NCBI GenBank assembly: GCA_025965475.1
Contig: JAOPWV010000105.1
Location: 320-64,319 of the forward strand
Source: Frankiales bacterium
Lineage (GTDB): Bacteria > Actinomycetota > Actinomycetes > Mycobacteriales > SCTD01
Direction: 5' to 3'
DNA length: 64,000 nt
The translations under genes and the position numbers were made by a program. Below the pieces are notes generated by a model. That model saw nothing but the letters and a program-made list of their open reading frames with translations, had not been told where the DNA came from and made no database searches. Numbering within the stretch: the stretch's first letter is position 1; each line of letters starts with the position of its first letter. Positions 24,219-44,657 of this stretch are shown here, in pieces.

Positions 24219-24490
24219 CGAGACCCCTTCGATCCGACCTTGGCGCCGGCACGACCTGTGGCGCGGCACCAAGTGTTGCAGCGCCCGCGCACGCCCGAGG
24301 GAACACGCTCGAAACCGGCGCAACAGGGGGCATCCCTCGGACGCCGGACCGGCACCAACACGTACATCCCGGACGGCTACGACGCTCGCGGCGCGGCTGC
24401 CGGCCCGGCATGAATGCGCCTGACCGCCTTCAGCCTGGTCTCGGGGCTGCCCCGGTCGTACCGTGGGCGCGCACTGCCGAGGAGGTTGCC

Positions 24491-25777
24491 ATGGCCGTCC
24501 CCACCGCGCTCGCCGCCGGCATGGTGGATGCGTGCTTCGCGCGCCGGGTCGCTCCCCTCGAACGCCTCGGCGAACACGCCGACCTCGTGGCGCTCGCGGC
24601 CCGGGACGTCGCGGCCCGGCTGGCCCGTGGCGGCCGGCTCCTGCTGTTCGCGGGCGGCGGCGCCACCACCGACGCGGCCCACGTTGCGGTGGAGTTCGTC
24701 CATCCGGTCGGGGTCGGCAAGCCCAGCCTGCCGGCGCTGTCCCTGACGGCCGACGTGGCGAGCCTGCTGGCCACGGCGTCCAGCCACGGGCTCGACCAGG
24801 TCTTCGCCCACCAGGTCCGGCTCATTGGCGGCCCCGACGACGTCGCGGTCGGCCTGTCCGCCGATGGCCGGTCCCCGGCGGTGGCGGCCGGCCTCCGGGC
24901 TGCCCGCGACGCCGGCCTGCTCACCGTGGCCCTGCTCGGCGGGGACGGCGGTGCGATCGCCCGCGATCGCCTCGCCGAGCACTGCCTGGTCAACGGCGCC
25001 CCGGACGCACACCTGGCGAAGGAGGCCCACGTCACGACCTACCACGTCCTGTGGGAGTTGGTGCACGTCTTCCTCGACCATCCCGAGGCAATGACCGACG
25101 CGCCACCACCGGCGGCCGGCGGGGTCGAGCAGCTGTATCCGTTCCTGTACGGCGGCGGGGGCGGGAGCCAGCAGGTGCTCACCGAGGCGGTGGTCTCGAC
25201 CCGGGTGAAGGTCGCCGACGTGCTCGCGCTGCGCCACGAGGTGCTGCAGGAGCAGCGGACCCAGCTGGCCACCTGTGCGGGACGTATGGCCGAGGCCTTC
25301 GACCAGGGCGCGACGCTCCTGGCGTTCGGCAACGGGGGCAGCAGCACCGATGCCCAGGAGCTGACGGCGTCGTTCCTGGCGCCACCGTCCGGACGGCCGC
25401 TGCCGGCGCTCTGCCTCACCAACGACGTGGCGATCGTGACCGCGCTGTCGAACGACATCGGCTTCGACGTGGTCTTCGCGCGGCAGGTCGAGGCGTTCGG
25501 CCGGCCGGGGGACATCGCGGTGGGCCTGTCCACGAGCGGCGGATCGCCGAACGTCCTCGCCGGTCTGCGGACGGCCAAGGAGCGCGGCATGACGACGATC
25601 GGGCTGGCCGGCTATGGCGGTGGCCAGATGGCCACCCTCGGCGCCATCGACCACCTGTTCACCGTGCCGTCGTCCTCCGTGCACCGCGTGCAGGAGGTGC
25701 AGACGACGATCTACCACGTGTTGTGGGAACTCGTTCAGCAGGCGCTGCCGTCCCGGGCGGCCGCCACCGCGACCTGA
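24491..25777 (+). CDS. tandem SIS-domain (GmhA-like sugar-phosphate isomerase fold) protein
   Basis: ATG at 24491 has GGAGG 6 nt upstream. There are two SIS halves. The first is degenerate (LLLFAGGGATTDAAHVAVEF) and the second is canonical-looking (LLAFGNGGSSTDAQELTASF...GLSTSGGSPNV). It converges on hypF and overlaps it by 43 nt. Confidence 0.8.
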   Translation: MAVPTALAAGMVDACFARRVAPLERLGEHADLVALAARDVAARLARGGRLLLFAGGGATTDAAHVAVEFVHPVGVGKPSLPALSLTADVASLLATASSHGLDQVFAHQVRLIGGPDDVAVGLSADGRSPAVAAGLRAARDAGLLTVALLGGDGGAIARDRLAEHCLVNGAPDAHLAKEAHVTTYHVLWELVHVFLDHPEAMTDAPPPAAGGVEQLYPFLYGGGGGSQQVLTEAVVSTRVKVADVLALRHEVLQEQRTQLATCAGRMAEAFDQGATLLAFGNGGSSTDAQELTASFLAPPSGRPLPALCLTNDVAIVTALSNDIGFDVVFARQVEAFGRPGDIAVGLSTSGGSPNVLAGLRTAKERGMTTIGLAGYGGGQMATLGAIDHLFTVPSSSVHRVQEVQTTIYHVLWELVQQALPSRAAATAT

Positions 25778-28023
25778 CCGAGGCTGATACCGCCGTCGTT
25801 GCACGGCACCTGCCGATGCGTGAGCACCTCGAAGCCCGCGCCCTGCAGACCATCGAGGCAGCGGCCGAGGAGCAGGGCGTTCTGGAAGACGCCGCCGGAC
25901 AGGGCCACGACGTCGAGGCCGTGCGCCCCCCGTAGCCGGGAGCAGACGTCGATGACGACGTCCGCCATCGCGTTGTGGAACCGCGCCGCCACGATCGGCA
26001 CCGACGCGCCCGCCAACCGGTCCTGGACCACAGCGCGGACCAGCTCGGCACCCGGCACTTCCAGGATCGGGCCGCCCTGTACGCGCACCGGGTAGCTGCC
26101 CGTCTCACCCTCGTCGGCGCACTGCTCCAGTTCCACGGCCGCCTGCCCCTCGTAGGTCACCGCGTCGCGGAGCCCGAGCACCGCGGCCACCGCGTCGAAC
26201 AGCCGCCCGGCGCTGGAGCTCAGCGGCGCGTTGAGACCGGCCGCCGCCGCGGACAGCACGTGGTCCCAGCGGCGGCCCTGCCGGATCCGTACCTCGAGGG
26301 CCGGTACGTCGGCGCCGTACGCCGCGTCGAGATACGACGCGGCCATCCGCCACGGCTGCCGGGTGGCAGCGTCGCCGCCCGGCAGCGGCACCGGCTGCAG
26401 ATGCGCCACGCGGGTAGCGGTCACCAGGTCGGCGAGGAGGAACTCCCCGCCCCAGAGCGTGCCGTCCTCGCCGAGCCCGCTCCCGTCGAGCGCCACGCCG
26501 ATCACCGGCCCGCGGACCCCGTTGTCCACGAGACACGCGGCGACGTGGGCATGGTGGTGCTGAACGGCAACCCGCTCCACGTCAGGCAACTCCGCGGCAT
26601 AGCGGGTGGATGGGTAGTCCGGATGCAGGTCGTGGGCCACCAGCACGGGCTGCAGGTCGAACAGCCGCCGCAGGTGGTCGATGCCGTCGAGATACGAGCC
26701 GTAGGTGCTGTAGTCGTCGAGGTCGCCGATGTGGTGGGACACGAACGCGTGCCGGCCCCGCGCCAGGCAGAACGTGTTCTTGAGCGACGCACCGCAGCCG
26801 AGCACCGTCCGGCGTGCCTCCAGGGGAAGGGTCAGCGGATCGGGCACATAGCCGCGCGAGCGCCGGATCGGTACGACGCGTCCACGGACCGCGCGCACGA
26901 CGGAGTCGTCCACGCGGGTGCGGATGGGCCGGTCGTGCGTCAGCCAGGCGTCGGCGACGCCGGACAGGCGCTGCAGGGCGTCGCCGTCCTCGTAGGCGAT
27001 CGGCTCGTCGGACCGGTTACCGCTCGTCATCACGAGTGGCCCCCCGACCTCGGCGAGCAACCGATGGTGCAGGGCGGTGTACGGCAGCATCACGCCCAGC
27101 GCCCGCTGGCCCGGCGCGACCGACGGCGCCACCGCAGCCCCGATGCGCCTGCGCAACAGGAGAATCGGCCGCGCGCGCGCCACGAGCAGCTGCTCTTCCC
27201 CGGGGTCGACGTCACACAGCGTCCTGATACCTGGCAGGTCCGCCACCATCAGCGCGAACGGCCGGTCCTCCCGATGCTTGCGCCGGCGCAGGAGGGCAAC
27301 GGCCGCCTCGTCGGCCGCGAGCACGGCGAGATGGAAGCCGCCGAGGCCCTTGACGGCAAGGACCCCGCCGGCCCGCAACAGGTCGGCTGCCCCGCCGAGC
27401 GCGTCCCCCTCGACCGGCTGCCCGTCCGCGTCGAGCAGCGCGAGCCGCGGCCCGCACGCCGGGCAGCACAACGGTTGCGCGTGGAAGCGGCGGTCGCCCG
27501 GATCGTCGTACTCCGCCTGACAGGACGGGCACAGGGGGAAGCCCGCCATGGTCGTGCGCTGCCGGTCGTACGGCACGTCCCGCACGATCGTGTAGCGCGG
27601 GCCGCAGTGCGTGCAGGTGGCGAAGACGTGGCCGAAGCGACGGTCGACCGGGTCGCGGACCTCCGCCAGGCAGGCGTCGCAGGTCGCCGCGTCCGGTGAT
27701 ACCAGGACGTCGCGCGGCCCCGTGCTGTCGCTGAACTGGACCGAGAAGCCGGCCTCCCCGGTCAGCGCCACCTCCCGGCTGCGCACCTGGTCGACCCGGG
27801 CCAGGGGCGGCGCGTCGGTATGCAGGGCGGCCAGCAGCGCCGTGACCGCGGCCGGCGCCCCCTCCACCTCGAGGACGACTCCCGCCGTGTCGTTGCGGAC
27901 GAAGCCTGCCAGCCCGAGGCCGACGGCCTTACGCCAGACGAACGGGCGGAAACCCACGCCCTGGACGATCCCGGTGACATGGGCGCGGGTCCGGACGGGG
28001 GCTCCGCCTTTCAGGTCGTCCAT
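25735..28023 (-). CDS. hypF: [NiFe]-hydrogenase maturation carbamoyltransferase HypF
   Basis: The 762-aa product has an acylphosphatase-like N-terminus (VTGIVQGVGFRPFVWR), zinc-finger CxxC pairs (CDAC...CTHCGPRY...CPSC...CPACGPR), and YrdC-like and Kae1-like C-terminal regions. Confidence 0.95.
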   Translation of the reverse strand: MDDLKGGAPVRTRAHVTGIVQGVGFRPFVWRKAVGLGLAGFVRNDTAGVVLEVEGAPAAVTALLAALHTDAPPLARVDQVRSREVALTGEAGFSVQFSDSTGPRDVLVSPDAATCDACLAEVRDPVDRRFGHVFATCTHCGPRYTIVRDVPYDRQRTTMAGFPLCPSCQAEYDDPGDRRFHAQPLCCPACGPRLALLDADGQPVEGDALGGAADLLRAGGVLAVKGLGGFHLAVLAADEAAVALLRRRKHREDRPFALMVADLPGIRTLCDVDPGEEQLLVARARPILLLRRRIGAAVAPSVAPGQRALGVMLPYTALHHRLLAEVGGPLVMTSGNRSDEPIAYEDGDALQRLSGVADAWLTHDRPIRTRVDDSVVRAVRGRVVPIRRSRGYVPDPLTLPLEARRTVLGCGASLKNTFCLARGRHAFVSHHIGDLDDYSTYGSYLDGIDHLRRLFDLQPVLVAHDLHPDYPSTRYAAELPDVERVAVQHHHAHVAACLVDNGVRGPVIGVALDGSGLGEDGTLWGGEFLLADLVTATRVAHLQPVPLPGGDAATRQPWRMAASYLDAAYGADVPALEVRIRQGRRWDHVLSAAAAGLNAPLSSSAGRLFDAVAAVLGLRDAVTYEGQAAVELEQCADEGETGSYPVRVQGGPILEVPGAELVRAVVQDRLAGASVPIVAARFHNAMADVVIDVCSRLRGAHGLDVVALSGGVFQNALLLGRCLDGLQGAGFEVLTHRQVPCNDGGISLGQVAVAAARDGSAC

Positions 28024-28071
28024 ATGGACACCTCACCGAAAACCGCTACAGGCCTGGAGATAGGCGGGATC

Positions 28072-28101
28072 TTGACACTCGACCCGAGAGGGGTCTATCA
28101 C
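28072..28101 (+). promoter_or_regulatory. candidate sigma70-type promoter for hhyS (TTGACA-N18-TATCAC)
   Basis: TTGACA lies at 28072..28077 and TATCAC at 28096..28101, in a locally AT-richer island within the 164-bp hypF/hhyS divergent region. It lies about 87 nt upstream of the hhyS start. Confidence 0.35.
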
Positions 28102-28187
28102 AAAACGAAGGCGTGCAAGCAGGTCATCGCGGACCGGACTCGCGCCGTACCGGGGCTGGTGGTCCCAGGCCCCGAGGGGAGGGCCAC

Positions 28188-29243
28188 GTGCCCACTGCTG
28201 AGGCGATCGCAGCGCAAGACACCTTGGTCCACGTTCTCTGGATCAATGCGGGGCTGAGTTGTGACGGCGACTCCGTCGCCCTGACCGGCGCCACCCAGCC
28301 GACCATCGAGGAGATCGCCCTCGGTGCGCTCCCCGGGCTGCCGAACGTCGCCGTGCACTGGCCCCTGATCGACTTCGAGTGCGGGCCCAACGGCGGCCGC
28401 GACGACTTCCTCGAGTGGTTCTGGAAAGCCGACCGCGGGGAACTCGAGCCGTTCGTCCTCGTCGTCGAGGGATCGATCCCGAACGAGACCCTCAAGGAAG
28501 AGGGGTACTGGTGCGGCTTCGGCAACAACCCGATGACCGGCCAGCCCGTCACGACCAGCGAGTGGCTGGACCGGCTGACCCCCAAGGCCTTGGCCGTGCT
28601 GGCCGTCGGCACCTGCGCGACGTACGGCGGCATCCACGCGATGGCCGGCAACCCCACGGGTGCGATGGGCGTGCCCGACTATCTCGGCTGGGACTGGAAG
28701 AGCAAGGCCGGCATCCCGATCGTGTGCGTCCCCGGCTGTCCGGTCCAGGGCGACAACCTGTCCGAGACCATCACGTACCTGCTCTACCAGGCGACCGGGC
28801 AGGCGCCGATGATCCCGTTGGACGAGGAGCTGCGGCCGACCTGGCTGTTCGGCAAGACCGTGCACGAAGGCTGCGACCGGGCCGGCTACTACGAGCAGGG
28901 CGACTTCGCCACGGAGTACGGCTCGCCCAAGTGCATCGTCAAGCTCGGCTGCTGGGGACCGGTCGTGAAGTGCAACGTCCCCAAGCGTGGCTGGATCAAC
29001 GGCGTCGGTGGCTGCCCGAACGTCGGTGGGATCTGCATCGGCTGCACGATGCCGGGCTTCCCCGACAAGTTCATGCCGTTCATGGACGAACCGCCGGGCG
29101 GGAAGCTCTCCACGACGATCATCGGCGGCTACGGCGCCACCATCCGCGCCCTGCGCACCAAGACGACGCAGACGCTGGACAAGGAACCCAAGTGGCGCAG
29201 GCCGGGCGCGCGACTGACCACGGGCGCGACCCGCACCTGGTAG
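28188..29243 (+). CDS. hhyS: [NiFe]-hydrogenase small subunit, group 1h (Hhy) type
   Basis: GTG at 28188 lies in the frame of track ORF 28113..29243, preceded by GAGGGGAGGG. There is no twin-arginine signal peptide. Fe-S cluster cysteines are present: INAGLSCDGDS, VGTCATYGG, VPGCP, HEGCDR and GGCPNVGGICIGC. Confidence 0.9.
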   Translation: MPTAEAIAAQDTLVHVLWINAGLSCDGDSVALTGATQPTIEEIALGALPGLPNVAVHWPLIDFECGPNGGRDDFLEWFWKADRGELEPFVLVVEGSIPNETLKEEGYWCGFGNNPMTGQPVTTSEWLDRLTPKALAVLAVGTCATYGGIHAMAGNPTGAMGVPDYLGWDWKSKAGIPIVCVPGCPVQGDNLSETITYLLYQATGQAPMIPLDEELRPTWLFGKTVHEGCDRAGYYEQGDFATEYGSPKCIVKLGCWGPVVKCNVPKRGWINGVGGCPNVGGICIGCTMPGFPDKFMPFMDEPPGGKLSTTIIGGYGATIRALRTKTTQTLDKEPKWRRPGARLTTGATRTW

Positions 29244-29307
29244 TGCGCACGAGCAGTCCCCCGCCAGACCTCCGCACGTCCTCCGCCCACCTCGCAGGGA
29301 GACATCG

Positions 29308-31104
29308 ATGACGGACACGCTTCCCCGGACCTCCGACACCGGTGCGGTGGACAAGGGACTCGTCGAGATGGCGTGGGACCCCATCACGCGGATCGTGGGC
29401 AGTCTCGGCATCTACACGAAGGTGGACTTCGCGAACCGGACCGTCGCCGAGTGCCACTCGACGTCGTCGATCTTCCGTGGCTACAGCATCTTCATGAAGG
29501 GCAAGGACCCGCGGGACGCGCACTTCATCACCAGCCGCATCTGCGGGATCTGCGGCGACAACCACGCCACCTGCTCCTGCTACGCCCAGAACATGGCCTA
29601 CGGCGTACGACCGCCGGCGGTCGGCGAGTGGATCGTCAACCTGGGCGAGGCCGCCGAGTACATGTTCGACCACAACATCTTCCAGGAGAACCTGGTCGGG
29701 GTGGACTACTGCGAGCGGATGGTCAAGGAGACCAACCCCGGGGTCCTCGCCCAGGCCGAGAACGCCCTCGCTCCCGGCTCCGCCGCCCACGGCTACCGCA
29801 CGATCGCGGACATCATGCGGGCCCTGAACCCGTTCACCGGCGAGTTCTACCGCGAGGCGCTCCAGGTCAGTCGCATGACGCGGGAGATGTTCTGCCTGAT
29901 GGAGGGCCGGCACGTCCACCCGTCCACGCTCTACCCGGGCGGCGTCGGCACGGTGGCCACCGTTCAGCTGATGACCGACTACCTGACGCGGCTGATGCGG
30001 TACGTCGAGTTCATGAAGAAGGTCGTCCCGATGCACGACGACCTGTTCGACTTCATCTACGAGGCGCTGCCCGGCTACGAGATGGTCGGGAACCGGCGCA
30101 TCCTGCTCGGCTGCTGGGGCTCGTTCCAGGACCCGGACTACTGCAACTTCACCTACCGGGACATGGAGCAGTGGGGCCGCAAGATGTTCGTCACCCCCGG
30201 GGTGGTCGTCGACGGCAAGCTCGTCACGACCAGCCTGGTCGACATCAACCTGGGACTGCGGATCCTGCTCGGCAGCTCGTACTACGACGACTGGAAGGAC
30301 CAGGAGGTCTTCGTCACCCACGACCCGCTGGGCAATCCCGTCGACAAGCGCCACCCGTGGAACCAGCACACCAACCCGCATCCGCAGAAGCGCGACCTGG
30401 ACGGCAACTACAGCTGGGTGATGTCCCCACGGTGGTACGACGGCAAGGACTACCTCGCCCTCGACACGGGGGGCGGCCCGCTCGCCCGGATGTGGTCGAC
30501 AGCGCTGGCCAACCTGGTCGACATCGGCTACGTGCGGTCGACCGGCCACAGCGTGGAGATCAACCTACCGAAGACGGCCCTCAAGGGACCGGTGAGCTTC
30601 GAGTGGAAGATCCCGCAGTGGAGCAACACCCTGGAACGCAACAGGGCGCGCACCTACTTCCAGGCCTACGCGGCAGCGATGGCACTGCACTTCACCGAGA
30701 AGGCACTGGCGGAGATCCGGGCCGGCCGCACGAAGACCTGGGAGACGTTCGACGTGCCCGAGGAAGCGGTCAGCTGCGGCTTCACCGAGGCCGTCCGCGG
30801 CGTCCTGTCGCATCACATGGTCATCCGGGACGGCAAGATCGCGAACTACCACCCGTACCCGCCGACGCCCTGGAACGCCAGCCCGCGGGACAGCTACGGC
30901 ACACCCGGTCCCTATGAGGACGCGGTGCAGGACCAGCCGCTGTTCGAGGAGAACGACCGGGAGAACTTCAAGGGCATCGACATCATGCGGACCGTCCGCA
31001 GTTTCGACCCCTGCCTGCCCTGCGGCGTCCACATGTACCTGGGCAAGGGCAAGACCCTGAAGAAGGTCCACTCGCCGACGATGGCCGGCACGGGCGAGGA
31101 GTGA
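29308..31104 (+). CDS. hhyL: [NiFe]-hydrogenase large subunit, group 1h (Hhy) type
   Basis: The N-terminal metal-site motif is TSRICGICGDNH. The C-terminal motif is SFDPCLPCGVH, followed by a 23-aa tail MYLGKGKTLKKVHSPTMAGTGEE. A GGGAGA ribosome-binding site precedes the ATG. Confidence 0.95.
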   Translation: MTDTLPRTSDTGAVDKGLVEMAWDPITRIVGSLGIYTKVDFANRTVAECHSTSSIFRGYSIFMKGKDPRDAHFITSRICGICGDNHATCSCYAQNMAYGVRPPAVGEWIVNLGEAAEYMFDHNIFQENLVGVDYCERMVKETNPGVLAQAENALAPGSAAHGYRTIADIMRALNPFTGEFYREALQVSRMTREMFCLMEGRHVHPSTLYPGGVGTVATVQLMTDYLTRLMRYVEFMKKVVPMHDDLFDFIYEALPGYEMVGNRRILLGCWGSFQDPDYCNFTYRDMEQWGRKMFVTPGVVVDGKLVTTSLVDINLGLRILLGSSYYDDWKDQEVFVTHDPLGNPVDKRHPWNQHTNPHPQKRDLDGNYSWVMSPRWYDGKDYLALDTGGGPLARMWSTALANLVDIGYVRSTGHSVEINLPKTALKGPVSFEWKIPQWSNTLERNRARTYFQAYAAAMALHFTEKALAEIRAGRTKTWETFDVPEEAVSCGFTEAVRGVLSHHMVIRDGKIANYHPYPPTPWNASPRDSYGTPGPYEDAVQDQPLFEENDRENFKGIDIMRTVRSFDPCLPCGVHMYLGKGKTLKKVHSPTMAGTGEE

Positions 31105-32003
31105 CCGATCCCGCGGCTTCCGGCCGTCGCATCGAGCAGCTACTCGAGGCGAGTGCCGCCGCCGGACCCGCCGCCCGGGAGCGGGCGGAGGAGCTCGTGC
31201 GCCTGGTCGTGGATCTCTACGGCGCAGGCCTCGAGCGGCTGCTCGACATCGCGTACGAGTGCGGCGCGCTCACCGAGGACCTGCTCGCCGCTCTGGCCGC
31301 CGACGACCTGGTGTCGAGCCTGCTGCTCGTGCACGGCCTGCACCCGTATCCGGTGGAGGAGCGCGTGGAGCAGGCGCTGCGCGACGTACGGCCGTATCTG
31401 GGCTCCCACGGGGGTGACGTCCGCCTGCTCGAGGTCACCGGCGACGGCGTCGTACGGCTCGCGCTGCTGGGCAGCTGTGACGGGTGCCCCTCGTCGTCGG
31501 TGACGCTCTCGCTCGCCGTGGACGGGGCGGTACGCGCCGCCGCGCCGGAGGTGGTGCGCATCGACGTGGAGGAGGGCGTCGCTGACGGCAGTACCGCCGG
31601 CACCGTCATCCCGGTCGGCTCGCTGACCGCCAGGCTGCGGGCAGAGGCCCCGCCAGGGACGTGGGCAGACGTCGCCGCCGTGTCGGCACTTCCGGTTGGC
31701 AGCCTCGAGCCGGCGAGGGCCGCGGGGCTGGCGATCGCGCTGTGCCGTCTCGGCGACACCGTGTACGCCTACCTCGACGCCTGCCCGTCCTGCGGCGCCG
31801 CGTTGGTCGGGGCGCGCGTGGAACGGGCCCTCGGCTCCCCGGTCGGGACGGCGGTTCTCGCCTGCGCGCGCTGCCACGAGCACTTCGACGTCACGCACGC
31901 CGGCGCAGGCGTCGAGCAGCCGGCCCACCACCTGGAGCCGCTCCCCCTGCTGGTGCGGGACGGACGGGTCGAGGTCGCCGTACCGTCGGCGGTGCCGGCA
32001 TGA
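31101..32003 (+). CDS. hydrogenase-associated putative Fe-S protein (NifU-like domain + C-terminal Cys-rich domain)
   Basis: GTG at 31101 overlaps the hhyL stop (GTGA). The NifU-C-like block is HGGDVRLLEVTGDGVVRLALLGSCDGCPSS. The C-terminal half has CRLGD...LDACPSCG...LACARCHEHFD. Confidence 0.75.
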   Translation: MTDPAASGRRIEQLLEASAAAGPAARERAEELVRLVVDLYGAGLERLLDIAYECGALTEDLLAALAADDLVSSLLLVHGLHPYPVEERVEQALRDVRPYLGSHGGDVRLLEVTGDGVVRLALLGSCDGCPSSSVTLSLAVDGAVRAAAPEVVRIDVEEGVADGSTAGTVIPVGSLTARLRAEAPPGTWADVAAVSALPVGSLEPARAAGLAIALCRLGDTVYAYLDACPSCGAALVGARVERALGSPVGTAVLACARCHEHFDVTHAGAGVEQPAHHLEPLPLLVRDGRVEVAVPSAVPA

Positions 32004-32626
32004 ACAACGCCACGCTCGGGGTCCTCGCGCGGATCCGGGCCGATCGGCCGACAGCCACGCCGGGCGAGCGCTGCGAGATGTGTGCCGCGCCGATCGCGGA
32101 CGCGCACTCCCACGTCGTGAACCTCGGCAGCCGCTCGCTGCTGTGCACCTGCCGGGCCTGCTACCTGTTGTTCACCCACGATGACGCCACCCTGTCCTAT
32201 CGGGCGGTGCCGGACCGCTACCTGTCGTTCCCGGCGCTGGCGCCGGCGGTCTGGGACGAGCTGCAACTGCCGGTGGGCACCGCGTTCCTGTTCCTGAACT
32301 CCCACCTCGAGCGCATCGTGGCCTTCTATCCCGGACCAGCCGGGGCGACGGAGTCGGACCTCCCCCTCGAGGCCTGGGGCCGCGTGGTGGCGGCCGCCCC
32401 GTCGCTCTCCGCCCTGCGGCCGGACGTGGAGGCGGTCCTGGTCCGCGCCACCGGCCAGGACATCGCCTGCTTCCTCGTCCCGATCGACGTCTGCTACGAG
32501 CTGGTCGGCCACCTGCGGCGGCTGTGGCGCGGCTTCGACGGCGGGCAGGACGTACGCCGCCGGCTCGACGAGTTCTTCGCCGGCATCGCCGCGCGGAGCA
32601 AGCCGGCACCGGAGCACCAGCCGTGA
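32000..32626 (+). CDS. conserved hydrogenase-cluster protein of unknown function (N-terminal Cys cluster)
   Basis: ATG at 32000 overlaps the upstream stop (ATGA), in the frame of track ORF 31661..32626. The N-terminus has CEMCAAPIADAHSHVV...LLCTCRACYLLF. Confidence 0.75.
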   Translation: MNNATLGVLARIRADRPTATPGERCEMCAAPIADAHSHVVNLGSRSLLCTCRACYLLFTHDDATLSYRAVPDRYLSFPALAPAVWDELQLPVGTAFLFLNSHLERIVAFYPGPAGATESDLPLEAWGRVVAAAPSLSALRPDVEAVLVRATGQDIACFLVPIDVCYELVGHLRRLWRGFDGGQDVRRRLDEFFAGIAARSKPAPEHQP

Positions 32627-33261
32627 CCGAACTGGCCTTCACGGTGCTCGACGTGCAGCCGCAGGCGCACGCCGCGGCGCCGCACATGCTCTTCCGGCTG
32701 CGCGTCACCGAGAGCAGCGGTGCGTGCGTGCACGCCATGGCATTGCGCTGCCAGCTGCGGATCGAGCCGCAGCGCCGGGCCTACGAGCCACGGGAGCAGG
32801 CCGGACTCGAGGACCTGTTCGGCACCGCCGAGCGCTGGGGCCAGACGGCGAAGCCGTTCCTGTGGACCCATGCCTCGACGATGGTGCGCGGCTTCGAGGG
32901 CAGTCACGAGTTCGACCTGCCCGTGGCCTGCACCTACGACTTCGAGGTCAGCGGCACGAAATACCTGCATGCGCTGGCCGGCGGCGAGGTCCCCCTGGTC
33001 CTGCTGTTCAGCGGGACCGTGTTCACCCGCGGCGCGACCGGCTTCGCCGTCGAGCAGCTGTCCTGGTCCCTGGAGGCGGACACCCGGATGCCGGTGCGGG
33101 TGTGGCGGGACCTGATGGACCTGTACTTCCCGAACAGCGGCTGGATCCGCCTGGACCGGGACACCCTGGACGCGCTGCTCCGCTACAAGGCCTCGCGGGC
33201 ACTCACCTCGTGGGAGCAGGCCCTCGACCAGCTGCTGCCGGCCGAGGAGCGCGTGTCATGA
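32623..33261 (+). CDS. conserved hydrogenase-cluster protein of unknown function
   Basis: GTG at 32623 overlaps the upstream stop (GTGA), in the frame of track ORF 32524..33261. The composition is protein-like (VTELAFTVLDVQPQAHAAAPHMLFRLRVTE...). Confidence 0.7.
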   Translation: MTELAFTVLDVQPQAHAAAPHMLFRLRVTESSGACVHAMALRCQLRIEPQRRAYEPREQAGLEDLFGTAERWGQTAKPFLWTHASTMVRGFEGSHEFDLPVACTYDFEVSGTKYLHALAGGEVPLVLLFSGTVFTRGATGFAVEQLSWSLEADTRMPVRVWRDLMDLYFPNSGWIRLDRDTLDALLRYKASRALTSWEQALDQLLPAEERVS

Positions 33262-34625
33262 GCCTCACCGCGGCCCGCCGCGTCGCCGACGCCGTCCTGT
33301 ACGAGGGCTACCTGCTCTACCCCTACCGGGCATCGTCGCCGAAGAACCAGCTGCGCTGGCAGTTCGGGATCCTGGGCCCGGCCGGCGCCGTGCAGGCCGG
33401 CGTGGGCGAGGAGCCGTCGATGCGTGCCCAATGCCTGCTCGACAGCCCGGACGCCTCGGGGCGGCTCGACGTGCAGCTGCGTTTCCTGCAGGTGCAGGCG
33501 CGGACCGTCGAACGCCGTGACGGCGGCCAGTACGTCGGTGTGGAGGAGCTCGACGTCGCCGGCACGCGGTGGATCGGCTGGCACGAGGCCGTCGAGCGGG
33601 AGGTGCCGGTCCTCGACGTGCCGGTGGCCGACCTGCTCACCGGCCGGACCGTGACCGTGGCCGTGCCGGGCGGTGAGGAGTGCGAACTGCTCCACGACGG
33701 GGCGGACGTGGTGGGCCGGCTCGTCCGCAGGCGCTGGCCCCTGCAGGCAGAGCTGTTCCTGACCGCCCGACGCGGGATCGACCCCCGACTGCTGGTCGTC
33801 TCTGTCGCCGTCGACAACGAGACGGTCTGGCCAGGCGAGGGTGCGCCGGCGCCGGCTGCCTCGCCGCGCGATGTCGCTGCCCGGGGCTCGTTCATCGGGA
33901 CCCACCTGCTGCTGGCCGCCCGGGGGGCGGAGTTCGTCTCGCTGCTGGACGGGCCGCAGTGGTCCGCGGACGACGCCGCGGCCTGCGTGCAGTCACGGTG
34001 CTGGCCGGTGCTCGTGCTGGACGACCAGGGCCGGGACGCGGTCCTGGTCTCGCCCATCATCCTGGCCGAACGGCCGGTCGTCGCACCGGAGAGCGCCGGC
34101 GACCTGTTCGACGCCACCGAGATCGACGAGATCCTGACCTTGCGCATCATGACCATGACGGACGAGGAGAAGGCGGACGCGCGCGGCACGGACCCCCGCG
34201 CCGCCGCGATCATCGACCGTTGCGACGACATGACCCCGGCGGGCCTGAAGCGGCTGCACGGTACACGCCGCTCGACCGACGATGAGCCGGACCGAGAGAG
34301 GGTTCCGTGGTGGGACCCGGGATCGGACGCCTCCGTCTCCCCCGGCACGGACGCGGTGGACATCGCCGGCACCGCCGTCGCGAAGGGCAGCCGCGTGCTG
34401 CTGCGGCCGACGCGTCGGGCGGATGCCCAGGACCTGTTCCTCGCCGGGATGGTCGGCGTCGTCACCGCCGTCTACGCCGACGTCGACGGCGGGACGCATG
34501 TGGCGGTGGTGCTGGAGGACGATCCGGCGAGCGACCTGCACGAGTGGTACGGGCGCTACTACTACTTCGGACCGGATGAACTCGAACCGCTCCCGGCGCG
34601 CACCTCGACCGGACCGCAGCCATGA
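33258..34625 (+). CDS. conserved hydrogenase-cluster protein of unknown function (455 aa)
   Basis: ATG at 33258 overlaps the upstream stop (ATGA), in the frame of track ORF 32724..34625. The product begins MSLTAARRVADAVLYEGYLLYPYRASSPKNQLRWQFG. I recognise no catalytic motif. Confidence 0.75.
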   Translation: MSLTAARRVADAVLYEGYLLYPYRASSPKNQLRWQFGILGPAGAVQAGVGEEPSMRAQCLLDSPDASGRLDVQLRFLQVQARTVERRDGGQYVGVEELDVAGTRWIGWHEAVEREVPVLDVPVADLLTGRTVTVAVPGGEECELLHDGADVVGRLVRRRWPLQAELFLTARRGIDPRLLVVSVAVDNETVWPGEGAPAPAASPRDVAARGSFIGTHLLLAARGAEFVSLLDGPQWSADDAAACVQSRCWPVLVLDDQGRDAVLVSPIILAERPVVAPESAGDLFDATEIDEILTLRIMTMTDEEKADARGTDPRAAAIIDRCDDMTPAGLKRLHGTRRSTDDEPDRERVPWWDPGSDASVSPGTDAVDIAGTAVAKGSRVLLRPTRRADAQDLFLAGMVGVVTAVYADVDGGTHVAVVLEDDPASDLHEWYGRYYYFGPDELEPLPARTSTGPQP

Positions 34626-35131
34626 CCGCCCGGGTACTCGTCGCCGGCGTCGGCAACATCTTCCTGCGCGACGACGGGTTCGGCTGCGAGGCGGCACGGC
34701 GTCTCACGGCCCGGGAGCTGCCGGACGGCGTGCGCGTCGTCGACTACGGCATCCGCGGCATGCACCTGGCCTACGACCTGCTTGACGGGTACGACGCGCT
34801 CGTCGTCCTCGACGCGCTCCCCCGTGGCGGTCAGCCGGGCGACCTCGTCGTCCTGCAGGTCGGTCCCGAGGACCTGGGCGACGCCGAACTCGACGCGCAC
34901 GGGATGGAGCCCACCGCCGTACTCGCCAGCCTGTCGTGGCTCGGCGGCCAGCTGCCGCCGACGTACGTCGTCGGCTGTGAGCCGGCGGATATCTCGGAGG
35001 GCATGGGTCTGTCGCCTCCGGTCGAGGGCGCAGTCGACGCCGCGGTCGAGCTGGCCCGGCGCCTCCTGGACGACGAACTCACCCGCCTGCCCGGCCGGGC
35101 CGACGCAACCACGAGAAAGGACCGCACATGA
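34622..35131 (+). CDS. hydrogenase maturation endopeptidase (HupD/HyaD/HybD family)
   Basis: ATG at 34622 overlaps the upstream stop. The product contains VLVAGVGNIFLRDDGFG...VVDYG...LVVLDA...DAHGM, typical of large-subunit C-terminal proteases. Confidence 0.9.
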   Translation: MTARVLVAGVGNIFLRDDGFGCEAARRLTARELPDGVRVVDYGIRGMHLAYDLLDGYDALVVLDALPRGGQPGDLVVLQVGPEDLGDAELDAHGMEPTAVLASLSWLGGQLPPTYVVGCEPADISEGMGLSPPVEGAVDAAVELARRLLDDELTRLPGRADATTRKDRT

Positions 35132-35247
35132 GGACCATCGGCGTGATCACCGTCGCCGTCGGCGCCGTGGGGGTGGCTTTCGGAGCCCTGCTCGTGGTGC
35201 GCTCCATCCCGGACATCCAGCGCTACCTGCGCATCCGATCGATGTAG
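35128..35247 (+). CDS. 39-aa single-pass membrane micro-protein (absent from ORF track)
   Basis: ATG at 35128 overlaps the protease stop (ATGA). Hand translation gives MRTIGVITVAVGAVGVAFGALLVVRSIPDIQRYLRIRSM, ending at TAG 35245..35247. It has one hydrophobic helix followed by a basic tail, and high GC3. Confidence 0.55.
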   Translation: MRTIGVITVAVGAVGVAFGALLVVRSIPDIQRYLRIRSM

Positions 35248-35256
35248 GCCGGCGTC

Positions 35257-35664
35257 GTGCACGAGATCGGTTACTGCGAAGGCGTCGTCGAGGCGGTCGT
35301 ACGACGGGCTGCCGGCCGCCCGGTGGCCCGGATCGGTGTGCGCATCGGCGCCCTGCACCGCATCGTGCCCGACGCGTTCGCCCAGTCGTTCCAGCTGGTG
35401 GCGGGTGGTACCAGCGCCGAGGACGCCGTCACCGAGCTCGTCGTCGTACCCGCCCAGGCGACCTGCCGCGGGTGCGGTGCCGTCTTCGAGACGCCCGACC
35501 CCTCAGCGGTCTGCCCGGACTGCGGAGATCTCGACGTCACCGTCACGGGAGGCGACGAGGTCGTCCTGGAATGGGTCGAGTACGCCGACGCCGCGGCCGC
35601 GGAGCAACCGGACGAACGGGTGCCCGCCCATACCCACCAGCACTCGCCAGCCGGAGGTCGATAG
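35257..35664 (+). CDS. hypA: hydrogenase nickel-insertion protein HypA
   Basis: A GTG start gives an M-H-E N-terminus, the Ni-binding motif. The zinc site is CRGCG-x12-CPDCG. An unusual C-terminal tail contains PAHTHQHSPAGG. Confidence 0.9.
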   Translation: MHEIGYCEGVVEAVVRRAAGRPVARIGVRIGALHRIVPDAFAQSFQLVAGGTSAEDAVTELVVVPAQATCRGCGAVFETPDPSAVCPDCGDLDVTVTGGDEVVLEWVEYADAAAAEQPDERVPAHTHQHSPAGGR

Positions 35665-35666
35665 CC

Positions 35667-35942
35667 GTGTGCCTCGCCATCCCCGGGCAGATCGTCCAGC
35701 TGCTGCCGGGCAACAGCGATCAACTCGCCCTCGTCGACGTGGTCGGCGTGAAACGCCGGATCAACATCGGCCTCCTGGAGGAGGGCGGTGCGAAGGTCGG
35801 GGACTGGGTCCTCATCCACGTCGGCTTCGCGATGTCCGTGGTCGACGAGCGCGAGGCGGCAGAGGCCCTGTCGATGCTGGAGATGATGGGCAAGACCTTC
35901 ACCGACGAGCTGCAGGCCGTCGCCGAGTCGAGCATCCCGTGA
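35667..35942 (+). CDS. hypC: hydrogenase assembly chaperone HypC
   Basis: GTG at 35667 gives an (M)CLAIPGQIV N-terminus with the essential Cys2. It lies in the frame of track ORF 34782..35942. Confidence 0.9.
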   Translation: MCLAIPGQIVQLLPGNSDQLALVDVVGVKRRINIGLLEEGGAKVGDWVLIHVGFAMSVVDEREAAEALSMLEMMGKTFTDELQAVAESSIP

Positions 35943-36178
35943 CCGATCCGTCGTCGAGCTGCGCGACCGGCCCTGGCTGCATCACCTGCGGCGACGTGGC
36001 GTTGCCGCTGACGGTGGTCGAGGTCACCGGCCCGGACGCCCGGTGCCGCACCGACGACGGCCGGGAGGAATTGGTGGCCACCGAACTCGTCGGCGTCGTC
36101 GCGGCCGGCGACGTCTTGCTGGTGCACGCCGGCGTCGCTCTCGAACACCTTGCCCGGCGGAACGGGGAGTCCCCATGA
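35939..36178 (+). CDS. second HypC/HupF-like chaperone with Cys-rich N-terminal extension
   Basis: GTG at 35939 overlaps the hypC stop (GTGA). The product is VTDPSSSCATGPGCITCGDVALPLTVVEV...GDVLLVHAGVALE, a HypC-like barrel sequence with C-x5-C-x2-C in place of the N-terminal MC motif. Confidence 0.7.
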   Translation: MTDPSSSCATGPGCITCGDVALPLTVVEVTGPDARCRTDDGREELVATELVGVVAAGDVLLVHAGVALEHLARRNGESP

Positions 36179-37308
36179 CCATGCGCTTCGTCGACGAGTT
36201 CCGCGACCCCGAGTTGGCCGCGGTGCTGGGTCGGGAGATCACAGCCCTGTGCGAGCCGGGCCGGCACTACAAGGTGATGGAGGTGTGCGGCGGGCACACG
36301 CACACGATCTACCGGTACGGCGTGCAGGACCACCTGCCCGACGACATCGAGCTCGTGCACGGGCCGGGCTGCCCCGTCTGCGTGATCCCGATGGGACGGG
36401 TCGACGACGGCATCGCCATCGCCGAGCAGGACGGCGTCATCCTCACCTGCTTCGGTGACATGATGCGGGTCCCCGGCGGCAACGGCTCGTTCCTCGACGC
36501 GAACGCCCGTGGCGCGGACATCCGGATGGTCTACTCGCCGCTCGACGCGCTGCGCATCGCCCGCGACAACCCGGGACGGCAGGTCGTCTTCTACGCCATC
36601 GGCTTCGAGACGACGGCACCGTCGACCGCCCTGACCGTGCTGCGCGCGAAGAAGGAGGGGGTCAGCAACTTCTCCGTCTTCTGCAACCACGTGACGATCA
36701 TCCCCGCCATCAAGGCCATCCTGGACTCCCCCGACCTGCGGCTGGACGCCTTCATCGGGCCGGGGCACGTCTCCACGGTCATCGGCTGCCGGCCCTACGA
36801 GTTCATCCCCCGGCAGCACGGCAAGCCGCTCGTCTGCGGCGGCTTCGAACCGCTGGACCTGCTGCAGTCGGTCTACATGATCATGAGGCAGTTGGCCGAG
36901 GGCCGGGCCGAGGTGGAGAACCAGTACACCCGCGTCGTGGCCTACGACGGCAACCCGGTCGCACTGAAGGTGCTGGCCGAGGTGTTCTCGCTGCGGCCGT
37001 ACTTCGAGTGGCGCGGCCTCGGTTCGATCTCCTCCTCCGCGCTGCAGCTGTCCGAGCGGTATGCCGAGTACGACGCCGAGCTGCGCTACGACGTCCCGGG
37101 CCTGCGCGTCGCCGACCCCAAGGCGTGCCAGTGCGGCGAGGTGCTCAAGGGCGTCCTCAAGCCGTGGGAGTGCAAGGTCTTCGGTACGGCGTGCACGCCG
37201 GAGACCCCCATCGGCACCTGCATGGTCTCCAGCGAAGGCGCGTGCGCGGCGTACTACAACTACGGCCGCTACGCGAAGCAGCGGCTCCACCTGGAGATCG
37301 CGACATGA
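36175..37308 (+). CDS. hypD: hydrogenase maturation protein HypD
   Basis: ATG at 36175 overlaps the upstream stop. Motifs are MEVCGGHTH, GPGCPVCV, FETTAP and the C-terminal cysteines CQCGEVLKG...CKVFGTACTPE...CMVSSEGAC. Confidence 0.95.
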   Translation: MTMRFVDEFRDPELAAVLGREITALCEPGRHYKVMEVCGGHTHTIYRYGVQDHLPDDIELVHGPGCPVCVIPMGRVDDGIAIAEQDGVILTCFGDMMRVPGGNGSFLDANARGADIRMVYSPLDALRIARDNPGRQVVFYAIGFETTAPSTALTVLRAKKEGVSNFSVFCNHVTIIPAIKAILDSPDLRLDAFIGPGHVSTVIGCRPYEFIPRQHGKPLVCGGFEPLDLLQSVYMIMRQLAEGRAEVENQYTRVVAYDGNPVALKVLAEVFSLRPYFEWRGLGSISSSALQLSERYAEYDAELRYDVPGLRVADPKACQCGEVLKGVLKPWECKVFGTACTPETPIGTCMVSSEGACAAYYNYGRYAKQRLHLEIAT

Positions 37309-38387
37309 CCAGGCAGATCACCGAGGACCAGGTCGGCGAGCGGATCGAGGCGATCCGGCGGCGGCCCCAGCGCTTCCGCGACGAGCGGGTGACCATGGCG
37401 CACGGCGCCGGCGGAAAGGCGTCGCGGGCGCTCGTGGAGGGCCTGATCGTGCCGCTGCTCGACAACCCGGCACTGGCCGCGCTGTCCGACGCCGCGTCGA
37501 TCGACGTCGGGCAGGAGCGGCTCGCCTTCACGACCGACGCCTTCGTCGTACGCCCGATCTCCTTCCCCGGCGGCTCCATCGGCGAGCTCGCCGTCAACGG
37601 CACGATCAACGACCTGGCGGTCTCCGGAGCCCGCCCCGTGGCACTGTCGGCAGCCCTGATCCTCGAGGAGGGATTGTCCGCGGAGGTCCTGTCCGCCCAG
37701 GTCGAGGCGATGGCCCGGGCCGCCCGGACCGCAGGCGTGCCGGTGGTCGCCGGCGACACGAAGGTCGTCGAACGGGGCAAGTGCGACCAGATGTACATCG
37801 TGACGACCGGCGTCGGCGTCGTCGCGCCGGAGACGCAACTCGCGGCCGACCGGGTACGGGCGGGCGACAAGGTGCTGGTGTCGGGGACCATCGGCGACCA
37901 CGGCGTGGCGATCATGCTCGCCCGTGGCGAACTGGACATCGAGGCGGACGTGCACAGCGACACCCGATCCCTGTGGGACCTGGTGCGTGAGGTCCTCGCG
38001 CGCTGCGGCACCGGCGTCCACTGCATGCGTGACGCGACCCGGGGCGGGGTGGCGACGGTGCTCAACGAGATCGCCATGGCGGCCGAGGTCGGCGTCGTGA
38101 TCGCCGAGGAGCGCGTCCCGCTCCGGCCGGAGGTGATGGGGGCGGGCGAGATCCTGGGCATCGACCCGCTGTACGTCGCGAACGAGGGCAAGCTGGTGGC
38201 GTTCGTGGCGCCGGAGCACGCGGACGCCGCGCTGGCCGCGATGCGCGCGACGCCGGCCGGTGAACAGGCCGCGATCATCGGCGAGGTCCGGGACGAGCCA
38301 CCGGGCCGGGTTCTCGGCCGCACCGGCTTCGGCGGCCACCGCATGATCGACATGCTGGTCGGCGACCCGCTGCCGCGGATCTGCTGA
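37305..38387 (+). CDS. hypE: hydrogenase maturation protein HypE
   Basis: ATG at 37305 overlaps the hypD stop. It has an AIR-synthase-like fold (MAHGAGG, NDLAVSGA) and the diagnostic C-terminal ...DPLPRIC. Confidence 0.95.
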   Translation: MTRQITEDQVGERIEAIRRRPQRFRDERVTMAHGAGGKASRALVEGLIVPLLDNPALAALSDAASIDVGQERLAFTTDAFVVRPISFPGGSIGELAVNGTINDLAVSGARPVALSAALILEEGLSAEVLSAQVEAMARAARTAGVPVVAGDTKVVERGKCDQMYIVTTGVGVVAPETQLAADRVRAGDKVLVSGTIGDHGVAIMLARGELDIEADVHSDTRSLWDLVREVLARCGTGVHCMRDATRGGVATVLNEIAMAAEVGVVIAEERVPLRPEVMGAGEILGIDPLYVANEGKLVAFVAPEHADAALAAMRATPAGEQAAIIGEVRDEPPGRVLGRTGFGGHRMIDMLVGDPLPRIC

Positions 38388-38401: not shown

Positions 38402-38909
38402 CGATGACCGCGAGCCCGGCGTCGGTGAGCACCCGCTCGTCCTTCTCGGTCCGCAGCAGAGGCTGCGGGCCCCGGTAGAGGGCCGCGAGGCCGGCCGGCG
38501 CGATGCCGAGTTCCCGCGCGGTCTGATGCAGCTCCAGCTTGTGCATACGCCCGCCTGCGGCGGACACCCGCCGCAGCAGGTTCCCGACCTGCGCACCGTC
38601 CGGGCCGGCCGACTCCTGGGGCTCCGCATCGGCGAGCAGCGCGTCGATCTGGCGCTGGAGCCCACGCAGCGCGAACCGAAGCCGGGTCGCCTCGTCGAGC
38701 TCCTGCGGCGCGTCGCCCGCGCCCTGCCAGGTCCGCTTGGGGTGCCGGCGCAGGTACTCCTGCTCCAGCTCCAGCATGCGCTCCGTGTGCCGGGCGTACT
38801 GCTCGGCCGTGCCGTGCAGGAAGACCCAGTTGCGCGTGGCATGCGCGTGCGTCCCCTGCTGCTCCAGCTCCTCGTCCGACAGCTCGCGGGCAGGCCGTCC
38901 CTCGCTCAT
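38397..38909 (-). CDS. hypothetical protein (acidic N-terminus, last gene of box operon)
   Basis: The 170-aa ORF has a start that overlaps the amidohydrolase stop (ATGA). The product begins MSEGRPARELSDEELEQQGTHAHATRNWVFLHGTAEQYARHTERMLELEQEYLRRHP. I cannot assign a function. Confidence 0.6.
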   Translation of the reverse strand: MSEGRPARELSDEELEQQGTHAHATRNWVFLHGTAEQYARHTERMLELEQEYLRRHPKRTWQGAGDAPQELDEATRLRFALRGLQRQIDALLADAEPQESAGPDGAQVGNLLRRVSAAGGRMHKLELHQTARELGIAPAGLAALYRGPQPLLRTEKDERVLTDAGLAVIG

Positions 38910-39778
38910 GGCGTCTCCTCCGCATCACCAAGTCCCGCATACACCCGCCGCGCGTTCTCGCCGAGCACGAGAGGGATGACGTCCTCCGGGATACCGAGCC
39001 CGGCGACCGCCCGGGCGTTGGTGGCGGTGCCCGGCACCCCGGGCCAGTCCGTGGCGAAGATCCACTTGCGGGCGAGCCGGCCCAGGTCGAACCGGGCGTA
39101 GTACTCCGGCAGCCGCTTGGGCGGCAGGCCGGACAGCTCGATCCAGACGTTCGGGTGCGTCAGCGCGAGGAAGGCGGCCGCGTCGTACCACCAGCCCCGG
39201 CCGCCGTGCGCGAGCACGATGGTCAGGTCAGGGAAGTCGCGCAGCACCGTGTCGGCGTGCACCGGGTCGGCAAGGGCGTTGGTCGAGCCGGGGAACGTGC
39301 TGGTCCCGCAGTGCACGACCAGCGGCACCTGCCGTTCGACGAGCACCTCGTACGCCGGGTAGAGCGCGGCGTCGTCGAGCCGGAAACCACCATGAACCGG
39401 GTGCAGCTTGAGCGCGGCACCGCCGAGGTCGAGCTGGCGCCGTACCTCCCGCGCAATCGGGTAGTGCAGGTGCGGGTTGACGTTGGCGACGGGGCGGAAC
39501 AGCACCGGGTCGTGCTCGACGATCGGCAGTAGGTCGTCGAACCGCTGGTAGCCGGTGGCCTTGGGGCTGTACTCGCAGAACAGCAGCGCGACGTCGACAC
39601 CCTCGCGGCGGAACAGCTCCGCCAGCCGGGCCGGCCGCGGGACCCCCTCGGGATCCCAGACGTCCTCGAGGATGCCGGCGGGCCCGAAGTTCTCCGCCCA
39701 GGCGAGCCACGCGGGCGCGAGACTGTCGAGCCGCGGCACGTGGACGTGGGCGTCCACCAGCAGGTGGCCGTCGAGCAC
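38906..39778 (-). CDS. metal-dependent amidohydrolase-fold (TIM-barrel) hydrolase
   Basis: The product has LLVDAHVHVP (an HxH metal motif) and then ...LKLHP...VVHCG...VLAHGG...FATDWP, a pattern typical of the amidohydrolase-2 type family. Confidence 0.8.
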   Translation of the reverse strand: MLDGHLLVDAHVHVPRLDSLAPAWLAWAENFGPAGILEDVWDPEGVPRPARLAELFRREGVDVALLFCEYSPKATGYQRFDDLLPIVEHDPVLFRPVANVNPHLHYPIAREVRRQLDLGGAALKLHPVHGGFRLDDAALYPAYEVLVERQVPLVVHCGTSTFPGSTNALADPVHADTVLRDFPDLTIVLAHGGRGWWYDAAAFLALTHPNVWIELSGLPPKRLPEYYARFDLGRLARKWIFATDWPGVPGTATNARAVAGLGIPEDVIPLVLGENARRVYAGLGDAEETP

Positions 39779-39781
39779 GCG

Positions 39782-40117: not shown

Positions 40118-40129
40118 GGGTACTCCGGG

Positions 40130-41146: not shown

Positions 41147-41150
41147 CGCG

Positions 41151-42857: not shown

Positions 42858-42893
42858 GTGCATCTCCGTCCGCCGAGGGTCGGTCGCCTCTCC

Positions 42894-44505: not shown

Positions 44506-44561
44506 GGCTCTGCACTCCAGCAGTCGCGGTCCGTCAGGAGTCTGCCTCTCCTGTGACCCGG

Positions 44562-44609: not shown

Positions 44610-44657
44610 GACCGGGACCTGCATGTCCGCGGTGGCGGCGCGTGGTGCAATTCGGGG

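Follow-up and report, generated by a model that had tools for sequence, protein, structure and literature searches.

The 64,000-nucleotide stretch analyzed here, referred to as the window (contig JAOPWV010000105.1 of Frankiales bacterium assembly GCA_025965475.1, positions 320 to 64,319), carries at positions 28188-38387 what is very probably the operon for the structural and maturation proteins of a group 1h (Hhy, formerly group 5) [NiFe]-hydrogenase, an O2-tolerant enzyme of the cytoplasmic side. The host is an uncultured soil actinobacterium of high GC content. Group 1h hydrogenases, with which many soil actinobacteria live on traces of hydrogen, constitute the principal biological sink of atmospheric H2 and help soil bacteria survive. 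The locus is a further, ordinary and well-preserved example of a system that is well known and very widespread, and each group 1h locus that is correctly recognized aids the annotation of metagenomes.

The group 1h assignment is carried by the two catalytic subunits. The large subunit, HhyL, contains the L1 motif TSRICGICGDNH and the L2 motif SFDPCLPCGVH, both exactly as quoted in a preliminary description of this DNA and both regarded as signatures of group 1h/5 (PMC5364354). When compared with solved structures, HhyL matches the large subunit of the Ralstonia eutropha (Cupriavidus necator) H16 enzyme (5AA5_C) with 1077 bits and 78.2% identity, whereas the next-best solved [NiFe]-hydrogenase scores 162 bits and the group 2a enzyme Huc 117. 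The small subunit, HhyS, matches 5AA5_A with 540 bits and 68.5% identity. The L2 motif ends at His575 (codon CAC at 31030-31032), which is followed by a tail of 23 codons, MYLGKGKTLKKVHSPTMAGTGEE, as had been described. Endopeptidase cleavage is predicted directly after this residue and would take off 23 residues (31033-31101); the 5AA5 large-subunit chain terminates exactly at the aligned His.

Enzymes of group 1h/5 have no twin-arginine translocation (Tat) signal and no C-terminal anchor, and an Asp completes their proximal cluster (PMC5364354). Translation of hhyS starts at a GTG codon at 28188, preceded by the Shine-Dalgarno sequence GGGGAGGG, and yields the N-terminus VPTAEAIAAQDTLVHVLWINAGLSCDGDS, identical to the one quoted previously. 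The earlier statement that HhyS lacks a twin-arginine signal also holds, as no [ST]RRxFLK motif is present in the open reading frame (ORF), in the 25 codons by which it might extend upstream or in the rest of the 64-kb window. HhyS has no C-terminal membrane helix either, its top 19-residue hydropathy being 1.41. The proximal-cluster motif C25-D-G-D28 aligns to C-T-G-C of 4KL8_S and to C-D-G-D of 5AA5_A, and C25 and D28 are invariant in 75/75 homologues; by this alignment the predicted proximal Fe-S cluster is held by three Cys and one Asp (CxxD for CxxC). The operon partners of group 1h are present as well, namely a NifU-like HhyE, a PHG067-like DUF5947 protein, a DUF6084 protein, a hypothetical protein of ~450 residues and a HupD-type protease. 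The group 1h assignment made in the preliminary description is thereby upheld, with bit scores against solved structures serving as a surrogate for a tree or classifier, alongside L1/L2, the missing Tat signal and CxxD. As far as sequence can tell, all testable features of group 1h membership are in place, and at 78% identity to the R. eutropha enzyme a placement of HhyL outside this group is very unlikely. A literature search found no cryo-EM structure of Hhy.

Two observations concern the annotation of these subunits in databases. The group 1h small subunit is labeled 'hydrogenase expression protein HypE' in four RefSeq plasmid records (L083 10851-11906, L084 10908-11987, L085 10902-11957 and L086 10796-11884), which is a systematic misannotation. 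NCBIfam offers no model under which either subunit of group 1h passes the cut-off.

The interval is tiled by 13 intact plus-strand ORFs, each with a frame backed by a third-codon-position GC (GC3) of 0.89-0.96. GC3 was used for the choice of frame, because at ~73% G+C in the window raw ORF lists are noisy. The chain of 13 genes described previously is thus confirmed, although to arrive at 13 one must count the 39-codon ORF at 35128-35247 and treat the HypC-like genes as two distinct ones; all three are backed by Pfam and by an independent Joint Genome Institute (JGI) gene call on L082, the closest metagenome contig. After hhyL the order is hhyE, DUF5947, DUF6084, U455 (a conserved 455-aa protein), endopeptidase, DUF6893 and hypA-hypC-hypC'-hypD-hypE. 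The locus had also been called complete. This is overstated: HypA, HypC, HypD, HypE and HypF are all encoded, but hypF is a minus-strand gene beyond the interval (25735-28023) and hypB was not found in the 64 kb. Across hhyS and hhyL (28001-32000) the G+C content falls to 67-70%, compared with 73-77% in the flanks. Either a strong constraint on the amino acids or horizontal transfer in the past may lie behind this drop. Coordinates are collected in Table 1.

Table 1. Genes and putative promoter of the group 1h hydrogenase locus, in window positions
Feature	Position	Strand	Length (aa)	Family matches and remarks
SIS/GmhA-like protein	24491..25777	+	428	Pfam SIS_2; NCBIfam gmhA, 226.9 bits
hypF, carbamoyltransferase for cyanide ligands	25735..28023	-	762	Pfam acylphosphatase, zf-HYPF x2, Sua5_yciO_yrdC, HypF_C, HypF_C_2
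Promoter-like element TTGACA-18 nt-TATCAC	28072..28101	+		Predicted; in the 164-nt hypF-hhyS spacer
hhyS, small subunit	28188..29243	+	351	Pfam Oxidored_q6, NiFe_hyd_SSU_C
hhyL, large subunit	29308..31104	+	598	Pfam NiFeSe_Hases
hhyE, putative Fe-S protein, full-length	31101..32003	+	300	Pfam NifU; Rieske_2 below threshold
DUF5947 protein	32000..32626	+	208	Pfam DUF5947, 235.8 bits
DUF6084 protein	32623..33261	+	212	Pfam DUF6084, 307 bits; in all loci
U455, conserved protein	33258..34625	+	455	No Pfam/NCBIfam match; in all loci and pHG1
Maturation endopeptidase, HupD/HycI type	34622..35131	+	169	Pfam HycI; NCBIfam TIGR00072, 125 bits
DUF6893 micropeptide	35128..35247	+	39	Pfam DUF6893
hypA, nickel metallochaperone	35257..35664	+	135	Pfam HypA; no hypB next to it
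hypC	35667..35942	+	91	Pfam HupF_HypC, 87.6 bits
hypC', second, divergent HypC-like gene	35939..36178	+	79	Pfam HupF_HypC, 40.8 bits (above threshold)
hypD	36175..37308	+	377	Pfam HypD, 511 bits
hypE, last operon gene	37305..38387	+	360	Pfam AIRS, AIRS_C

Scanning genomes gave 598 confirmed relatives, and all locus counts given here rest on the best 80 of these 598. The best 80 all belong to Actinomycetota (Mycobacterium, Nocardia, Rhodococcus, Streptomyces, Actinoplanes, Arthrobacter and metagenome-assembled genomes (MAGs)) and have HhyL identities of 81-88%. Wherever their contigs reach far enough, these 80 loci contain the core hhyS-hhyL-hhyE-DUF5947-DUF6084-U455-protease, which is also found on C. 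necator plasmid pHG1, on a Methylocystis plasmid and on one mycobacterial and one Streptomyces plasmid. In most genera hypA, together with hypB, is located upstream and the remaining hyp genes form separate blocks. The full layout of the window, with the SIS gene, a divergent hypF and hypA-hypC-hypC'-hypD-hypE joined to the structural genes, was seen elsewhere only in L001-L003, three loci from MAGs of uncultured Actinomycetota that also share the promoter-like box and the lack of a nearby hypB. Contig L082 begins inside hhyL and does not extend to the SIS/hypF side, but over its length has the same 12-gene order and all nine start/stop overlaps according to an independent gene caller. These four loci differ from the window by sequence divergence only (HhyL 87-88% identical, U455 52-81%), and the window sequence itself is also found in a JGI metagenome. 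The locus thus represents one actinobacterial lineage in which hypA-hypC-hypC'-hypD-hypE are fused to the structural operon with no hypB nearby. Group 1h clusters were noted on 13 plasmid records from several phyla.

The genes that directly follow hhyL encode the accessory proteins of the system. HhyE combines a NifU-like domain with a Rieske-like C-terminal domain that has two CxxC motifs, and its residues C126, C129, C215, C228, C231, C255 and C258 are invariant in 66/66 sequences. This Cys pattern and the position right after hhyL fit the published definition of HhyE (PMC6883350). In Mycobacterium smegmatis, full-length HhyE is needed for Hhy activity and deletion of hhyE abolishes it, the role of the protein being either electron transfer or maturation (PMC6883350). 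A truncated protein of ~192 aa occupies the HhyE position on C. necator pHG1 (L083 13755-14333) and on a Streptomyces fungicidicus plasmid (L086 13743-14324), both of which have the U455-protease overlap. Full-length and truncated HhyE may mark two operon subtypes, a division that could track affinity.

In the DUF5947 protein, C25, C28, H36, H38, C49, C51, C54 and C165 are invariant in 77/77 sequences, and a metal or Fe-S site is predicted from this pattern. Judged by its position, the protein is the counterpart of MSMEG_2717/PHG067, and on pHG1 the DUF5947 family likewise comes next after the NifU gene. PHG067 has been put forward as an electron acceptor (PMC6883350). The AlphaFold2 model of the DUF6084 protein is a beta-sandwich (predicted local distance difference test (pLDDT) score 81.8) whose fold matches only generic Ig-like structures with template modeling (TM) scores of at most 0.39. 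The corresponding model of U455 (pLDDT 75.8) contains a large beta-sandwich and a helical segment, with an SH3-like barrel at the C-terminus. Homologues of U455 number at least 8,000, every one of them labeled 'hypothetical'. A Foldseek match of U455 to DrmA in the PDB (E = 7e-6) had a TM score of only 0.21 and a root-mean-square deviation of 24 A, and was rejected; other folds matched only the small SH3-like barrel (PetP, nitrile hydratase beta), so that none of these matches assigns a function. Searches of DUF5947, DUF6084 and U455 against PDB sequences gave no match below E = 0.1, a relaxed Pfam scan added no further family for the accessory proteins, no conserved cofactor motif was detected in DUF6084 or U455, and a literature search on the DUF names returned no relevant paper.

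The DUF6893 micropeptide is the sole operon product with a clear transmembrane segment. It consists of one transmembrane helix (hydropathy 2.61) and the conserved tail SIPDIQRYLRIRSM, and it is present in 80/80 related loci by a local hidden Markov model search, usually within the ~120-nt 'gap' between the U455 and protease genes. Substitutions among 82 copies of the gene follow the pattern of coding sequence, and all 82 retain D, R, Y and the terminal M. On pHG1 a DUF6893-like peptide, MKGFLKYLVLPALVVALLANIKDIRRYIRIRSM, is encoded right after the protease gene (L083 17513-17740, E = 1.3e-6); further copies are found at L085 17202-17420 (Mycobacterium intracellulare plasmid) and on the S. fungicidicus plasmid, and the Methylocystis copy is weak. 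The PLSDB/RefSeq gene tables of pHG1 and the M. intracellulare plasmid omit the peptide. Hhy has been described as tightly membrane-bound 'despite lacking obvious transmembrane regions' (bioRxiv 10.1101/769216), and membrane association is thought to be tied to high affinity (PMC7174314). The DUF6893 peptide is thus a universal and often unannotated member of the operon that bears on how Hhy binds the membrane without a known anchor, and it can be regarded, speculatively, as a candidate for membrane attachment. A simple correlation of the peptide with membrane binding or affinity fails because pHG1 has it, and for the same reason its absence was ruled out as an explanation for the cytoplasmic, low-affinity C. 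necator H16 enzyme. A more far-reaching and rather doubtful proposal is that a DUF6893 tether forms an undescribed membrane-bound module with HhyE, DUF5947, DUF6084 and U455 that passes electrons from HhyS to menaquinone and would be expressed in this lineage, along with a hypB-less maturation set, as one 13-gene unit.

The maturation genes at the end of the operon include two that encode HypC-like proteins. The start of hypC was placed at the GTG codon at 35667, which gives the canonical N-terminus M-C-L-A-I-P-G. The product of hypC' has no canonical N-terminal Cys and instead carries an 18-residue extension with C14-x-x-C17; it scores 32 bits with NCBIfam TIGR00074, under the cut-off, and was seen only in L001-L003, L082 and five mycobacterial loci (41-49% identity). 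A convergent minus-strand gene ends 9 nt past hypE. On the other side of the operon, hypF is divergent, with the same position and strand in L001-L003, and its 3' end is overlapped for 43 nt by the 3' end of the SIS/GmhA-like gene. The protein has two SIS regions, and its C-terminal half clears the NCBIfam cut-off for gmhA (sedoheptulose-7-phosphate isomerase). SIS genes also adjoin hypF, hypE or hypD in L001 and L002, in many mycobacterial loci and, with products of 229 aa, on C. necator pHG1 and in Methylocystis. Their recurrence there suggests an unrecognized maturation role and makes the SIS protein a probable accessory of the hyp set.

No hypB gene was detected. The six frames of the 64-kb window contain neither an ENVGNLVCP-type motif nor a G3E P-loop, a tblastn search of the window with three HypB proteins from related loci gave a best E-value of 0.24, and Pfam annotation of all other window genes revealed neither a G3E GTPase nor a nickel permease nor another hydrogenase. 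By comparison, hypB is present in 72/80 related loci, where it adjoins hypA. It was not found within 10 kb on either side of L001-L003, nor between hypA and hypC in L082, and this repetition of the hypB-less layout identifies it as a lineage trait rather than an accident of assembly.

The preliminary description listed 4-nt ATGA/GTGA overlaps at 31101, 32000, 32623, 33258, 34622, 35128, 35939, 36175 and 37305, and all nine are present. The three junctions without an overlap are those between hhyS and hhyL (64 nt), before hypA (9 nt, 35247 to 35257) and before hypC (2 nt, 35664 to 35667). Conservation differs strongly among the junctions of the core, with a 4-nt overlap in 5/80 loci for hhyS-hhyL, 16/79 for hhyL-hhyE, 65/80 for hhyE-DUF5947, 72/78 for DUF5947-DUF6084, 79/80 for DUF6084-U455 and 7/72 for U455-protease. 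A plausible operon promoter, judged from sequence, is the element at 28072-28101, whose TTGAC and TA..ACA do not vary when the window and L001-L003 are aligned, although a strict consensus scan did not call it. Inside the operon the consensus scan gave no promoter-like site and no plus-strand terminator-like site, and an Rfam search over 24-40 kb gave no match.

Several points weigh against reading the region as a self-sufficient, translationally coupled operon for scavenging H2. The fold searches with U455 and DUF6084 gave nothing specific, and any role for DUF5947, DUF6084, U455 or DUF6893 is tentative. The window and the surroundings of the same-layout loci lack hypB, so nickel insertion is not fully explained locally, and no nickel permease is nearby. 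High affinity cannot be read from the catalytic subunits, since the R. eutropha enzyme, 78% identical, is of low affinity. Co-transcription and translational coupling are inferred only, with an overlap rate mildly above the genomic background: outside the cluster, 11/26 same-strand neighbor pairs in the window (42%) also overlap by 4 nt. Against this background the 9/12 in the cluster is only mildly enriched (binomial P ~0.02), so the count itself is not remarkable. The run of ATGA/GTGA junctions could accordingly be the ordinary close packing of genes in an actinobacterial genome of high GC content instead of a device for stoichiometric co-synthesis, a substantial possibility that falls somewhat short of even and that fits the scarcity of the hhyL-hhyE and U455-protease overlaps among relatives. 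Such packing does not readily account for the three successive junctions from hhyE to U455, which overlap in 81-99% of loci from many genera, beyond the expectation from drift, and which also overlap in C. necator. Coupled synthesis is therefore a conserved feature for hhyE, DUF5947, DUF6084 and U455, and overlaps elsewhere in the operon are lineage-specific. Conservation in relatives thus backs the earlier claim of tightly coupled synthesis for these four only, overlaps of this kind being a general habit of the genome. Retention of the overlaps across genera suggests that the four proteins work jointly, and we infer that they act as one stoichiometric unit.

Affinity and functionality are the other points on which the locus could be read differently. 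A genuine group 1h enzyme of low or mid affinity that serves at elevated H2, like those of R. eutropha H16, Thermomicrobium and Methylacidiphilum, is a minor but real possibility, for the R. eutropha enzyme, with its Km of 3.6 uM, is cytoplasmic and does not use atmospheric H2 (PMC7174314). The window differs from that case in its HhyE, which is full-length at 300 aa as in mycobacteria, whereas the C. necator version has 192 aa and only the NifU domain; reported mid-affinity cases are organisms without HhyE (PMC6883350). Moreover, the closest relatives are all Actinomycetota and include genera reported as atmospheric H2 oxidizers (Streptomyces, Mycobacterium and Rhodococcus). On the basis of the full-length HhyE and these relatives, the enzyme is probably of the scavenging, high-affinity type. 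It is very improbable that the cluster is decaying or silent, with an enzyme left immature for want of hypB. The absence of HypB and of a nickel permease from the 64 kb, set beside the 72/80 related loci with hypB next to hypA, is what would be expected of such decay, but the 13 ORFs and hypF are intact and full length with GC3 of 0.89-0.96, and four independent contigs (L001-L003 and L082) repeat the hypB-less layout with proteins 52-91% identical, a recurrence that indicates purifying selection. The hypB gene may also lie elsewhere in the genome, and in Escherichia coli the loss of HypB can be bypassed by raised nickel.

In the proposed scheme, the 13 genes would most likely be expressed as one transcript that starts from the promoter between hypF and hhyS, and translation would be coupled by termination-reinitiation where the junctions overlap. 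By analogy with established [NiFe] maturation, HypF and HypE would make the cyanide ligands, and HypC and HypD would assemble Fe(CN)2CO and hand it over to pre-HhyL. HypA would insert nickel, with HypB either supplied from elsewhere or dispensable. The endopeptidase cut after His575 would then allow HhyL to close and pair with HhyS. As suggested by work on M. smegmatis, electrons from H2 may pass along the three [4Fe-4S] clusters of HhyS and then to HhyE, to the Cys/His-rich DUF5947 protein or to both, and onward to menaquinone and the aerobic respiratory chain, which would support persistence on trace H2. Hhy is reported to feed menaquinone (bioRxiv 10.1101/769216).

The flanking regions of the window encode other functions. 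Just upstream of SIS-hypF-hhy, a 1565-aa multidomain regulator (19626-24323, minus strand) combines HATPase_c_2, several GAF domains, PAS and a SpoIIE/PP2C phosphatase, and could be a stress or partner-switching regulator. Downstream, a minus-strand block at 38906-47842 resembles aromatic acyl-CoA catabolism, with an amidohydrolase, a 4Fe-4S ferredoxin, an FAD reductase, an enoyl-CoA hydratase, an AMP-ligase, a PaaX regulator, a thioesterase and a PaaA/PaaC-like protein; no relation of this block to the hydrogenase is apparent. A hopanoid biosynthesis cluster occupies 57254-64000 on the minus strand and includes a squalene-hopene cyclase, a LytB-PNP_UDP phosphorylase fusion, a radical-SAM DUF3463 protein (HpnH-like) and a 1-deoxy-D-xylulose-5-phosphate (DXP) synthase.

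Among known systems, the closest with a solved structure is the R. eutropha (C. necator) H16 enzyme HofK/HofG (PDB 5AA5), encoded on pHG1. It shares with the window the L1 and L2 motifs, CxxD, the absence of a Tat signal and a mature large subunit that ends at the same His. The two loci further have in common a NifU-like protein, DUF5947, DUF6084, a hypothetical protein of ~460 aa, the protease, a DUF6893-like peptide and an SIS gene among the hyp genes. They differ in that C. necator has a NifU-only protein in place of full-length HhyE, as well as hypB, the nickel permease HoxN and a single hypC, whereas the window is without hypB and the permease and has two hypC-like genes. The C. necator hyp genes are ordered F-C-SIS-D-E-A-B on one strand, while in the window hypF is divergent.

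The Hhy locus of M. smegmatis (MSMEG_2722-2718 and downstream genes) and other mycobacterial loci such as L007 and L085 encode an HhyL 83-86% identical to that of the window. They share the ~300-aa HhyE, the core order hhyS-hhyL-hhyE-DUF5947-DUF6084-U455 and the conserved 4-nt overlaps. In mycobacteria, however, hypA-hypB is located upstream of hhyS, the other hyp genes form separate units and the micropeptide gene lies between U455 and the protease, whereas in the window it follows the protease. The group 2a enzyme Huc of M. smegmatis (PDB 7UTD) is, like Hhy, O2-insensitive, Tat-less and of high affinity, feeds menaquinone and has a NifU-type partner, HucE. Huc is distinguished from the enzyme of the window by the low score of its alignment with HhyL (117 bits) and by its stalk protein, as the window encodes no HucM-like protein. 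The partner proteins differ as well, HucE having a true Rieske CxH...CxxC motif and HhyE two CxxC motifs (PMC6883350).

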